This document shows positions 3,887-6,526 of a stretch of DNA of 6,871 bases, in pieces. The DNA is taken from the NCBI GenBank assembly GCA_964648855.1, contig CAZYLT010000047.1, forward strand, positions 1-6,871, given 5' to 3'. Made by a program: the position numbers and the translations under genes. The notes below the pieces were generated by a model. That model was not told the DNA's origin. It did no database searches and saw nothing but the letters and a program-made list of their open reading frames with translations. Numbering within the stretch: position 1 is the first letter of the stretch; each line of letters opens with the position of its first letter. This stretch comes from an uncultured archaeon. GTDB lineage: Archaea; Asgardarchaeota; Thorarchaeia; Thorarchaeales; Thorarchaeaceae.

Positions 3887-5095
3887 ATGATATTTGAACT
3901 AAAGTTTGCAGATATTGGCGAAGGAGTACAAGAAGGGGAAGTAATGGAGTGGCACGTAAGTGAGGGGGACAAGGTTGAGGAAGAGCAAACTGTTGTTGAG
4001 GTTCATACAGAGAAGGTGAATGTGGAGATCACAACACCCGTAAATGGAACAGTTGTATCTCTGGAAAAAGAAGAGGGCGATATTGTTCAAGTCAATGAAA
4101 TTCTAATGAAAATTGAAACTGAGGAGGCTCCAGAAGAGGAAGAAGAGCCTACAAAAGAGGAAGAAGATGATTCCCTCTTCAAGCCATCTGCCCCCTTCAA
4201 GATGAGAGATGACAGAAACAAGTCCAAGAAGGTACTAGCGGCTCCAGCAGTGCGGCGAAGAGCTCGAGAGGCGGGTATCGATCTTCAGCTGGTAGAGGGC
4301 ACAGGACCAGCAGGCAGGGTAAAACAAGAAGACCTCGAGCGCTACAAGAAACAGAAAAGGCGCCCACGGCAAGAGGTTGAGAAACGAGAGGAAGTCATCT
4401 CTTTGCGGGGAACTCGGCGTTCAATCGCAAAATCGCTAAGGAAGTCAAAGGACAGAGCGGCTCACTTTACATACTTTGATGAGGTAGACATGTCGGCAAT
4501 GGATGAGCTGAGGAAAGCAGCCAAGTCGATGGCTGAGGAGAAGGGAGTAAGTCTGACCTATCTCCCGTTGATTATCAAATGTCTCATTCCTACGCTCAAA
4601 GAATTCCCGATGTTGAATGCATCATTAGATGATGAGGAAGAGCAGATTATTATCAAGCACTATTACAACATTGGTATTGCTGTGGACACTGAAGAGGGAC
4701 TTATGGTACCTGTCATAAAGAATGCTGATACCAAGACCGTGTGGGATCTTGCGGAGGAGGTTGAAGATTTGGCTACGCGAGCACGTTTGGGGAAGCTGAC
4801 TCTTGAGGATGTACAAGGTGGCACCTTTACGATAACGTCAGTTGGGAATATTGGCGGAGCGATGGCGACCCCCATCATAAACTGGCCTGAAGTCGCCATT
4901 CTCGGCGTTATGCGCAAGAAACTTCGGCCCGTTGTAGTAAAAGAAAACGAGAAACCGGAGATTGCTATACGCCCGACAATGTTTCTATCGATATCGATTG
5001 ATCATAGAGTGGTAGATGGTGCGAAAGTGGCAAGGTTCACTAACCTACTGATGAAGTATATGGAGAATCCCGGACTTGTCTTATTGGAGGAATAG
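3887..5095 (+). CDS. pdhC: Dihydrolipoamide acyltransferase E2 (single lipoyl domain, E1/E3-binding domain, catalytic domain)
   Basis: MIFELKFADIGEGVQEGEV; lipoyl turn HTEKV (Lys codon 4013-4015); binding domain LAAPAVRRRAREAGIDL...GTGPAGRV; GGTFTIT; PIINWPEVAILG; catalytic DHRVVDG. Confidence 0.95.
   Translation: MIFELKFADIGEGVQEGEVMEWHVSEGDKVEEEQTVVEVHTEKVNVEITTPVNGTVVSLEKEEGDIVQVNEILMKIETEEAPEEEEEPTKEEEDDSLFKPSAPFKMRDDRNKSKKVLAAPAVRRRAREAGIDLQLVEGTGPAGRVKQEDLERYKKQKRRPRQEVEKREEVISLRGTRRSIAKSLRKSKDRAAHFTYFDEVDMSAMDELRKAAKSMAEEKGVSLTYLPLIIKCLIPTLKEFPMLNASLDDEEEQIIIKHYYNIGIAVDTEEGLMVPVIKNADTKTVWDLAEEVEDLATRARLGKLTLEDVQGGTFTITSVGNIGGAMATPIINWPEVAILGVMRKKLRPVVVKENEKPEIAIRPTMFLSISIDHRVVDGAKVARFTNLLMKYMENPGLVLLEE
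5086..5090 (+). promoter_or_regulatory. Shine-Dalgarno site for E3
   Basis: GGAGG within the last E2 codons, 8 nt before the in-frame CTG at 5099. Confidence 0.65.
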
Positions 5096-5098
5096 AAT

Positions 5099-6526
5099 CT
5101 GACAAAAGAGGTTGATGTACTCGTTATTGGAGGCGGTCCAGGAGGTTATCCCGCTGCAATTCGTTCTGCGCAACTGGGAAAGAAAGTACTCCTTGTTGAG
5201 CAAGAATCCATTGGAGGGGAGTGCCTGAATTGGGGCTGCATCCCCTCAAAGGCACTGATTGAGGCAGCTAACAAGTTTCATGAGATCTCCCATGACGTAC
5301 CTGATTTTGGCATAGAAGTAGAGGGGGTACACATAGATGCCAAAAAGCTTCAGGAGTGGAAGCAGAGTGTGACTGAACGACTAGTAAAGGGAGTAGAAAT
5401 GCTGTTGAAGAACAACGGTGTTGAAGTGTTGAAGGGCAAAGCTCGATTCGCTAAGGTTCGAGAAGTTGAAGTTTCACTTGACTCTGGAGAAAAAGAGGTG
5501 ATACAAGCCGACGATGTGATCATCGGAATAGGGACCGATTTCCGCATGATTCCAACGGCCGAAATAGACGAGCAGAAGATTCTCACTGTAAGAGGACTCT
5601 TGAATCTTAACGAGATACCAGATACTCTCGTCTTTGTTGGAGGGGGATTAGTGGCCATGGAGCTCGGAACAGCCTTCTCTAAACTGGGTTCTAAAGTTCA
5701 TATCGTTGAAATTAAATCGGAAGTACTTCCGGACGTCGAATCCTCATTGGTCAGAGTTGTGAAGAGAAACATGAAGAAACTTGATGTTGATTTTCATGTT
5801 GATTCTAGACTGGAATCCGCGAAAGAAAACGAGGGCGGTACTCTCGAAATCAAGATATCTCGCAAAGATGAAGAACCTCTCGAAATCGTCACGGATAAGT
5901 TGGTTGTTTCTGTGGGCAAGAAAGCTAAAGAAGATGAGTTGGGATTACAGAAGATAAGCATTGAAACTGATGAACATGGCTTTATCAAAGTAGATGACAA
6001 AATGAGAACAAATGTGGAGCATCATTATGCAATCGGTGACTGTATAGGAGCTCCTTTTCTAGCTCACAAGGCTACAAAGAATGGAATCATTGCTGCAGAA
6101 GTGATTGCAGGGAAGCATTCCACCGCGGACTTTAGAGCTATGCCAGGTGTGATCTTCACGGATCCAGAGATTGCCTATGCGGGCATGACGGAGGACGAGG
6201 CAGAGTCAGCAGGATACGAAGTTATCACAGCAAGAGCGCCGTTTTTAGCCTCTGGAAGAGCATTGACCACCGGCGATACAAACGGGTTCGTTAAAGCGGT
6301 GGTTGAAACAGGGACAGGTGTAATTCTTGGGGTTCAGATCGTAGGACCCCACGCCTCCGATTTGATTAGCGAGGCCTCCTTGGCCTTAGAGATGGGAGCT
6401 GTTGCTGAGGATGTGGCATTCGCGGTTCATCCTCATCCGACATTGCCAGAGATGATTATGGAAGCCATGGAGGCAACTCAGGGTAAGGCAATTAATATAA
6501 TCAATCCTAAGAAATCCAAGAGATAG
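5099..6526 (+). CDS. lpdA: Dihydrolipoamide dehydrogenase E3 (475 aa from a CTG start)
   Basis: Manual translation from 5099 gives (L/M)TKEVDVLVIGGGPGGYPAAIRSAQLGKKVLLVEQESIGGECLNWGCIPSKAL..., containing the FAD GxGxxG motif and the redox CLNWGC disulfide. It runs in frame into the 5369 ORF, which has YAIGD, LAHKA, FTDPEIA and HPHPTLPE. Confidence 0.95.
   Translation: MTKEVDVLVIGGGPGGYPAAIRSAQLGKKVLLVEQESIGGECLNWGCIPSKALIEAANKFHEISHDVPDFGIEVEGVHIDAKKLQEWKQSVTERLVKGVEMLLKNNGVEVLKGKARFAKVREVEVSLDSGEKEVIQADDVIIGIGTDFRMIPTAEIDEQKILTVRGLLNLNEIPDTLVFVGGGLVAMELGTAFSKLGSKVHIVEIKSEVLPDVESSLVRVVKRNMKKLDVDFHVDSRLESAKENEGGTLEIKISRKDEEPLEIVTDKLVVSVGKKAKEDELGLQKISIETDEHGFIKVDDKMRTNVEHHYAIGDCIGAPFLAHKATKNGIIAAEVIAGKHSTADFRAMPGVIFTDPEIAYAGMTEDEAESAGYEVITARAPFLASGRALTTGDTNGFVKAVVETGTGVILGVQIVGPHASDLISEASLALEMGAVAEDVAFAVHPHPTLPEMIMEAMEATQGKAINIINPKKSKR

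Follow-up and report, generated by a model that had tools for sequence, protein, structure and literature searches.

A probable CTG initiation codon for dihydrolipoyl dehydrogenase in a Thorarchaeota 2-oxoacid dehydrogenase operon

Near-cognate starts, coupled genes and the Thorarchaeota locus

CTG, ATT, ATC and ATA are rare near-cognate start codons of prokaryotes (NCBI translation table 11). An example is the AUU of infC in E. coli, which is conserved and autoregulatory. CUG also serves as a near-cognate start in eukaryotes, where the mismatch with the initiator tRNA lies at the first position. The Thorarchaeota are Asgard archaea and stand close to the eukaryotic stem; Asgard archaea share initiation factors of the eIF1/aIF1 and eIF2/aIF2 types with eukaryotes. 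Archaeal 2-oxoacid dehydrogenase genes occur in operons in the order E1 alpha, E1 beta, E2 and E3, for instance in Thermoplasma acidophilum. Reviews of archaeal initiation give AUG, GUG and UUG only (PMC7531240, PMC4705826), and in Methanosarcina mazei a Ribo-seq study gave CTG as the start of about 5% of the small ORFs that it newly found (PMC11456600). Studies of gene pairs in Haloferax volcanii and E. coli show that translational coupling needs an overlap or a very short distance between the genes, with little of it left once they are about 20 nt apart (PMC6728339, PMC10666635).

The window, by which we mean the whole stretch of 6,871 nt that was analysed, is a complete short contig (6.9 kb) from a metagenome-assembled genome (MAG) of a Thorarchaeota, an Asgard archaeon. 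The E3 gene found in it resembles the infC type in that a near-cognate codon stands where relatives have AUG or UUG, with a Shine-Dalgarno (SD) site at normal spacing, and is missed by gene finders that accept only ATG, GTG and TTG. It differs from infC, where the AUU is conserved and regulatory, since the CTG of E3 is confined to one species and nothing marks it as a conserved weak start. The first-position mismatch is shared with eukaryotic CUG initiation and aIF1 is present in the Thorarchaeota genome; however, the E3 start would be positioned by an SD site and not by scanning and Kozak context. In gene order and in the domains of its four proteins the Thorarchaeota operon agrees with the Thermoplasma acidophilum type, from which it departs in the non-canonical start of E3. 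In contrast to the three start codons given by the archaeal reviews, this one Asgard genome has near-cognate starts at about a dozen genes. Like the termination-reinitiation pairs of Haloferax volcanii and E. coli, E2 and E3 are co-directional genes for one heteromeric complex, are separated by a short gap, and have the SD site in the end of the upstream gene. The commonest layout in those pairs is an overlap of 4 nt or 1 nt, whereas E2 and E3 have a gap of +3 nt, and a near-cognate downstream start is not addressed in those studies (PMC6728339, PMC10666635).

The operon, the E3 frame and its junction with E2

The window carries a 2-oxoacid dehydrogenase operon with the gene order E1 alpha, E1 beta, E2, E3 (Table 1). 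The three partners of E3 lie upstream on the same strand, and E2 bears the E3-binding domain PF02817. E3 scores 504.2 bits against TIGR01350 (lipoamide_DH; cut-off 408.8), with residues 5–466 covering profile positions 2–460 of 461. It possesses the N-terminal GxGxxG FAD motif and the CxxxxC disulfide of class I pyridine nucleotide-disulfide oxidoreductases. The Pfam domains Pyr_redox and Pyr_redox_dim fall at residues 177–253 and 348–456, and HPHPTLPE, with the His...Glu pair, is found in the translation. The closest database homologue is P0002, at 73% identity. Scans of genome contigs and metagenome contigs with E3 returned distant relatives only, of at most 52% identity.

Table 1. Features of the operon and of the E2/E3 junction, in window positions.
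Feature	Position	Strand	Remarks
E1 alpha, 2-oxoacid dehydrogenase complex	1827..2891	+	Probable start ATG 1827; TIGR03181, 413.9 bits, profile position 2 = residue 23 in the frame that opens at 1758
E1 beta	2909..3871	+	Probable start ATG 2909, giving MVESIRLAVDEEM; NF006667, 313.5 bits, profile position 5 = residue 25 from 2834
E2, dihydrolipoamide acyltransferase	3875..5095	+	Candidate starts GTG 3875, ATG 3878, ATG 3887; Pfam Biotin_lipoyl, E3_binding, 2-oxoacid_dh; NCBIfam matches
Shine-Dalgarno core GGAGG	5086..5090	+	Within the final E2 codons (L-E-E), 8 nt before CTG
E2 stop TAG	5093..5095	+	In the E3 frame, 3 nt before the E3 start
E3, dihydrolipoyl dehydrogenase CDS	5099..6526	+	475 aa plus stop; TIGR01350; Pfam Pyr_redox_2, Pyr_redox, Pyr_redox_dim
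CTG, proposed E3 initiation codon	5099..5101	+	Aligns with Met1 of orthologues; TTG in G001, ATG in G392/G393; C in four run assemblies
FAD-binding motif GGGPGG	5129..5146	+	Residues 11–16 counted from CTG; Pyr_redox_2 profile position 2 = residue 6
Redox-active disulfide motif CLNWGC	5222..5239	+	Residues 42–47 counted from CTG
GTG, first canonical in-frame start	5369..5371	+	90 codons past CTG; choice of gene callers, whose 385-aa product has neither the FAD motif nor the disulfide motif

In the ORF reading of the window, positions 5096 to 6526 form one open frame for E3. The first-pass annotation of this DNA held that E3 has no canonical start before 5369, that its FAD and disulfide motifs are encoded upstream of that point, and that the frame is closed by the TAG of E2. 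Each of these points was confirmed from the sequence: no in-frame ATG, GTG or TTG occurs between the TAG and GTG 5369, and GGGPGG and CLNWGC both lie upstream of this GTG. AAT and CTG are the sole codons between the in-frame stop and TKEVDVLVIGGGPGG, and the translation from 5099 reads L-TKEVDVLVIGGGPGGYPAAIR...GGECLNWGC. Of the 2571 long ORFs in the genome, only one has a longer stretch free of canonical starts than E3 (91 codons), and the E3 stretch has the top coding score of all such stretches, 0.35 versus 0.40 in the gene body. A start-free coding stretch of this kind exceeds chance expectation. It was also anticipated that gene callers would truncate E3, and they do; the database product for the contig (P0001) has 385 aa and begins at GTG 5369.

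The junction at 5086–5101 reads GGAGG AATAG AAT CTG. The 3′ end of the 16S rRNA of this genome, ending ...ATCACCTCCT, carries the anti-SD sequence. The usual spacing from GGAGG to the first canonical start is 7–9 nt in the genome, and the spacing of 8 nt at E3 fits it. With E2 ending at 5095 and E3 starting at 5099, the two co-directional genes lie within the short distance described for coupling (PMC10666635). Tight junctions of this sort are found at four of six CTG candidates, compared with 16% of all genes in the genome, although this is a post hoc comparison of small numbers.

From the sequence, E3 translation very probably starts at CTG 5099. Ribosome initiation at this CUG, its efficiency and its tRNA are what we infer, as follows. 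GGAGG 5086–5090, 8 nt ahead of the CUG, would place the 30S subunit by pairing with the 16S anti-SD; the subunit may either arrive fresh or remain on the mRNA after termination of E2 at UAG 5093–5095, 3 nt off. The initiator Met-tRNA would then read CUG with a first-position mismatch to give (M)TKEVDVLVIGGGPGG; no special factor or Leu-tRNA for the E3 CUG is indicated. The CTG would have arisen from TTG by one transition in the species of the source genome, and would persist because the lineage tolerates near-cognate starts behind an SD site. Taken as a whole, from SD-placed initiation at CUG 5099 to a TTG-derived codon in a tolerant lineage, this explanation appears to us a good deal more probable than its competitors together.

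The junction in relatives and competing explanations

The source genome (G000) was compared with a sister species of the same genus (G001) and with two genomes from another genus of the same family (G392 and G393). The junction reads GGAGGAATAG AAT CTG in the source genome, GGAGGAATAA ACC TTG in the sister species and GGGGGAATAG ATT ATG in both genomes of the other genus, with identical geometry in all four. The SD site is GGAGG in the sister species and GGGGG in G392 and G393. CTG 5099 aligns with Met1 of orthologues beginning M-x-x-x-x-D-V-L-V-I-G, and on this alignment it is homologous to the start codons of the relatives. A canonical ATG, GTG or TTG lies within two codons of the CTG position in 35 of 37 related junctions, and the start codons of the orthologues are ATG in 28, TTG in five and GTG in two. 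CTG at the E3 start occurs only in the source genome among the 37 junctions. The proposal that CUG initiates behind an SD site at a tight E2/E3 junction passes the test suggested with it in the first-pass annotation, alternation of the codon among relatives, with TTG in the sister species and ATG in the other genus. No support was obtained for the further suggestion that E3 stoichiometry is tuned by a weak start, given that only one species has the CTG. The E3 codon has the look of a start codon turning over, where the lineage tolerates near-cognate starts, rather than of a conserved regulatory weak start.

The TTG-to-CTG change might instead have silenced E3, completely or nearly so, and left an incipient pseudogene, with a complex that either no longer works or relies on another flavoprotein disulfide reductase. 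Such a loss would suit the restriction of CTG to a single species while the other clear junctions among the 37 are all canonical. Two E3 paralogues, at 28–30% identity and on contigs C8 and C27 of the same genome, and the patchiness of the operon in the family, where 4 of 85 other genomes match at E<=1e-110, also speak for it. However, the 476-codon frame is intact with every catalytic motif present; the three partner genes are likewise intact, and E2 has kept its E3-binding domain. E3 is under purifying selection. The dN/dS between the source genome and the sister species is 0.10 (dS 0.65; 154 codons), a mean over the whole divergence, from which a very recent inactivation would escape. In a relative-rate test, 4–5 changes were unique to the source genome and 5–7 to the sister species, and the source branch displays no acceleration. 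About a dozen other genes of the genome need near-cognate starts, among them a highly conserved ABC ATPase whose CTG likewise faces a TTG in the sister species and a gene with an ATC start kept in three genera. It is not credible that all of them are dying. On balance, recent start-codon loss is unlikely.

Readthrough of the E2 stop into an E2-E3 fusion is conceivable, since the two genes share a frame in the source genome, the sister species and both genomes of the other genus, and only TAG AAT separates them in the source. Yet TAG is the most frequent stop in the genome, ending 1024 of 2592 long ORFs, and the sister species has TAA at the site. The relatives have a regular start with an SD site at the same position, and other orthologues differ in both spacing and frame. 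Folding of the RNA from 5050 to 5150 revealed no notable structure (z = -0.33) at the junction. A fusion by readthrough is accordingly very improbable. A separate idea, recoding of TAG, was ruled out; TAG is not reassigned, because it is the commonest stop in the genome.

The base itself may also be doubted, as the C at 5099 could come from faulty assembly or sequencing, or belong to a minor allele in a population whose true codon is TTG. The window is a MAG contig of just 6.9 kb, and rare variants are dropped from contigs. Nevertheless, the Logan contigs assembled from each of four runs are identical over 4600–5600 and have C at 5099, at k-mer depths of 68, 102, 9.8 and 6.4, with no other letters. 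These are assemblies and not raw reads, from four metagenomes of a microbial mat that probably gave rise to the MAG itself; their agreement excludes an assembly slip and would still admit a minor allele, as contigs hide minor alleles. The same TTG/CTG relation to the sister species at the start of the ABC ATPase likewise argues against an error. We hold a true TTG at this position to be scarcely credible, and the base on which the first-pass annotation depended stands in all four assemblies.

Near-cognate starts across the genome and their meaning

In stretches without a canonical start, genome-wide, CTG is the most enriched codon 5–9 nt past GGAGG (4.0-fold), and about 12 further genes of the genome need near-cognate starts by an approximate census. 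A more diluted form of the test, which counts every codon among the opening 100 of each long ORF, gives 1.26-fold for CTG versus 2.4-fold for ATG. Where a GGAGG-aligned codon is followed by coding-like sequence, the codon is near-cognate at 10 of 11 loci (binomial P ~7e-6; 3e-5 without E3). The start of the ABC ATPase, a conserved single-copy gene found family-wide, is CTG in the source genome, TTG in the sister species and ATG, GTG or TTG elsewhere. A nucleotidyltransferase retains GGAGG-N7-ATC in three genera, in two of which there is no canonical alternative. A GNAT gene has an ATT start where its relatives have ATG, ATT or ATA.

Not all candidates are placed with the same certainty. For the GNAT gene (C3) the GGAGG-aligned codon was rejected as the start: this GGAGG lies in codons for A-E-V, and the gene begins at the ATT eight codons upstream. 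The census is approximate because of this misplaced candidate. Three others are ambiguous. The sister species has a TTG 12 codons downstream of the FecCD candidate (C50), the domain of the radical SAM candidate (C2) begins past the first canonical codon, and for the candidate at C17:8525 another genome (G008) has an ATG four codons upstream. The aIF1 of the genome has the usual zinc-knuckle N-terminus and a GTG start, and its sequence offers no clue to relaxed stringency. ARAGORN gave no match on the rRNA locus.

A broader proposal, which we regard as evenly balanced, is that the Thorarchaeota follow a relaxed start-codon rule. CUG, AUC, AUU and AUA behind an SD site would then be regular starts in roughly at least 1% of genes, and starts would drift among AUG, UUG and CUG. 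E3 would be a TTG-to-CTG step caught between sister species, and CUG might be favoured at tightly coupled junctions.

The public record of E3 is a 385-aa fragment that lacks the FAD and disulfide motifs, and the same error affects other genes of the genome. For this reason, metabolic reconstructions of the lineage might count its 2-oxoacid dehydrogenase complex as lacking a subunit and hence incomplete. The ATG/TTG/CTG series at the E3 junction in close relatives offers a ready set of test constructs. If the proposal is true, routine use of CUG, AUC and AUU behind an SD site in a lineage near eukaryotes would provide a natural system for studying the evolution of start-codon stringency.

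The E3 frame and its missing canonical start

The E2/E3 junction reads TTG GAG GAA TAG AAT CTG ACA AAA GAG, as the first-pass annotation had it, and the TAG at 5093–5095 is the stop of E2 and closes the E3 frame upstream. No ATG, GTG or TTG occurs in this frame, open from 5096, before GTG 5369. The 90 codons ahead of that GTG contain those for GGGPGG (5129–5146) and CLNWGC (5222–5239), and they align to the start of TIGR01350 and to Pyr_redox_2. E3 matches TIGR01350 with 504 bits (cut-off 408.8), and profile position 2 falls on residue 5. Among the 2571 long ORFs of the source genome, this stretch free of canonical starts is the second-longest and the most coding-like of its kind, scoring 0.35 versus 0.40 in the gene body. 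The predicted truncation by gene callers has indeed happened, since a large protein collection lists the contig's product (P0001) as 385 aa long, beginning at GTG 5369.

The window is all 6871 bases of contig C47, and the genome, archaeal by its 16S rRNA, comprises 3.1 Mb in 62 contigs. Homologues of E3 carry the names Thor-, Loki-, Hod- and Heimdallarchaeota. Within the family the orthologue is patchy, with a match at E≤1e-110 in 4 of 85 other genomes and, beyond these, a copy cut by a contig end in the same-genus sister species G001; the operon is therefore probably patchy too. The orthologue is commoner in some other Asgard families (9/12 and 6/22).

Features of the window and of other contigs of the source genome (Cn:position, contig and coordinate)
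Feature	Position	Strand	Remarks
227-aa protein	window 212–895	−	Opposite strand, upstream of operon; weak alpha/beta-hydrolase match
213-aa protein	window 988–1629	+	Upstream of operon; weak zinc-ribbon matches
E1 alpha	window ~1827–2891	+	2-oxoacid dehydrogenase operon
E1 beta	window ~2909–3871	+	2-oxoacid dehydrogenase operon
E2	window 3875/3887–5095	+	Lipoyl, E3-binding and catalytic domains
E3	window 5099–6526	+	2-oxoacid dehydrogenase operon
Nucleotidyltransferase	C43:4741–5811		PF00483
ABC ATPase	C1:303176–304153
GNAT acetyltransferase	C3:197884
16S rRNA, near 3′ end	C19:32160–32275		Two short insertions, ~30 nt each
Further near-cognate candidates	C2:193923, C17:8525, C19:12301, C9:31141, C50:2516, C3:153844	−	SD-like site, coding-like sequence
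Further near-cognate candidates	C17:19570, C1:278113, C10:12215	+	SD-like site, coding-like sequence

CTG 5099 and the starts of relatives

The 60 best homologues of E3 share the N-terminus M-x-x-x-x-D-V-L-V-I-G, of which MTREVNVLVIGGGPGG and MAREIDVLVIGGGPGG are examples, and their Met1 aligns with CTG 5099. In G001 the junction, which sits at a contig end, is GGAGGAATAA ACC TTG ACA AAA AAA, with an identical SD, one spacer codon, the same frame and TTG at the CTG column; across 155 residues the amino-acid identity is 88%. At 57% identity, G392 and G393, which belong to a different genus of the family, have GGGGGAATAG ATT ATG. The alternation of ATG, TTG and CTG anticipated for the homologous codon is thus found. 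Of 37 related junctions, 36 gave a clear answer: 35 have a canonical codon within 2 codons of the CTG column (ATG 28, TTG 5, GTG 2), and the window alone has CTG with no canonical alternative; the remaining junction is a distant locus.

The gap from GGAGG to CTG 5099 is 8 nt, and the genome peak for GGAGG before first canonical starts is 7–9 nt. The 3′ end of the 16S rRNA, which scores 1279 bits with the archaeal SSU model versus 960 with the bacterial one, is ATCACCTCCT. Of the two insertions in this rRNA, one follows GAAGTCGTAA and the other directly precedes ATCACCTCCT; the Rfam SSU match ends short of the true 3′ end.

Probable near-cognate starts elsewhere in the genome

In the part of a frame that runs from an in-frame stop to its first canonical start, the codon most enriched 5–9 nt after GGAGG was CTG (11/302, 4.0-fold), and near-cognate codons as a group were enriched 1.8-fold. 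About 11 distinct loci pass the further requirement of at least 12 coding-like codons ahead of the first canonical start, and at 10 of them the codon aligned with the SD is near-cognate (binomial P ~7e-6, or 3e-5 without E3).

Three census genes were traced into relatives. The nucleotidyltransferase has no canonical start ahead of its GxGxR loop, and the first one comes 46 codons after Pfam position 2; at C43:4789 it reads GGAGG-N7-ATC followed by QALLLAAGRGSRL. The ATC and SD are kept in three genera of the family, two of them with no canonical alternative, and in an additional genus a TTG stands one codon before this position. The ABC ATPase is found in 71 of 86 family genomes, mostly at 70–94% identity, and of the 70 others that have it, 69 show one match each; named relatives at 72–80% identity are nearly all labelled Candidatus Thorarchaeota. 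Its start is CTG in the source genome (AGGAGG-N8-CTG), TTG in G001 and mostly ATG, GTG or TTG elsewhere in the family, while the related genome G008 has no canonical start (CTG or ATT). Beginning at the first canonical codon would delete the first beta strands. In the GNAT acetyltransferase, one column holds ATT in the source genome, G001 and G008, ATA in G003, and ATG in G015 and G392. The GGAGG-aligned codon was rejected as its start; the GGAGG just downstream of the ATT encodes A-E-V and is not an SD. Coding-like sequence also precedes the first canonical start at nine further candidates (CTG, ATC, ATT, ATA and ACG), several of them ambiguous.

Probable initiation at CUG and its alternatives

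Judging from the sequence, the initiator tRNA most likely starts at CUG 5099, positioned by the SD. The E2 stop falls between the SD and the CUG, 3 nt short of the latter, so a ribosome that finishes E2 would already be on site. Archaea are known to use termination-reinitiation, which requires genes that overlap or lie very close together (PMC6728339, PMC10666635). Tight junctions occur at 4 of 6 CTG candidates in the genome versus 16% of all genes, in a post hoc and small comparison. Candidates with ATC, ATT and ATA mostly stand alone, so near-cognate starts in general do not depend on coupling. A search for special RNA structure at the E2/E3 junction found none; aIF1 is present and looks ordinary.

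That CTG is unique among the junctions fits a recent loss of the E3 start codon, which we nevertheless regard as unlikely. It is weakened by the many parallel near-cognate cases and by the selection data: over the first 154 codons versus G001, dN is 0.067, dS 0.65 and dN/dS 0.10, and, with four outgroups, unique amino-acid changes number 4–5 in the source genome versus 5–7 in G001, so that the CTG lineage is not accelerated. The E3 frame, with its catalytic motifs, and the partner genes are all intact, and the E3-binding domain is retained in E2, though all these measures are blind to very recent silencing.

An E2-E3 fusion by readthrough of the E2 stop could draw on the frame common to both genes; it is very improbable given that the stop is TAG here versus TAA in the sister species, that TAG is the commonest stop in the genome, and that relatives possess start signals. 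A sequencing error or minor allele at 5099 is hardly credible either, being contradicted by four assemblies. The first-pass annotation had singled out this base for checking, and contigs from four runs of one microbial-mat study (k-mer depths 68, 102, 9.8 and 6.4) agree with it and are identical over window 4600–5600 with no other letters; these are possibly the source samples themselves, and since contigs mask minor alleles, a low-frequency T could be hidden. An assembly slip is excluded.

Tuning of E3 stoichiometry by a weak start is not supported, as orthologues start with ATG, TTG or GTG and CTG is confined to one species. The simplest reading of the aligned junctions would be neutral or nearly neutral turnover from TTG to CTG in a tolerant lineage. 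CTG is among the start codons of NCBI table 11, and rare near-cognate starts, such as the AUU of infC, are known in bacteria. In a Ribo-seq study of Methanosarcina, ~5% of the newly found small ORFs were assigned a CTG start (PMC11456600); reviews of how archaea initiate translation mention just AUG, GUG and UUG (PMC7531240, PMC4705826). Since near-cognate starts are already on record, the E3 CTG would be a further case of them. A lineage-wide near-cognate habit, if confirmed experimentally, would be of more interest than the E3 start itself.
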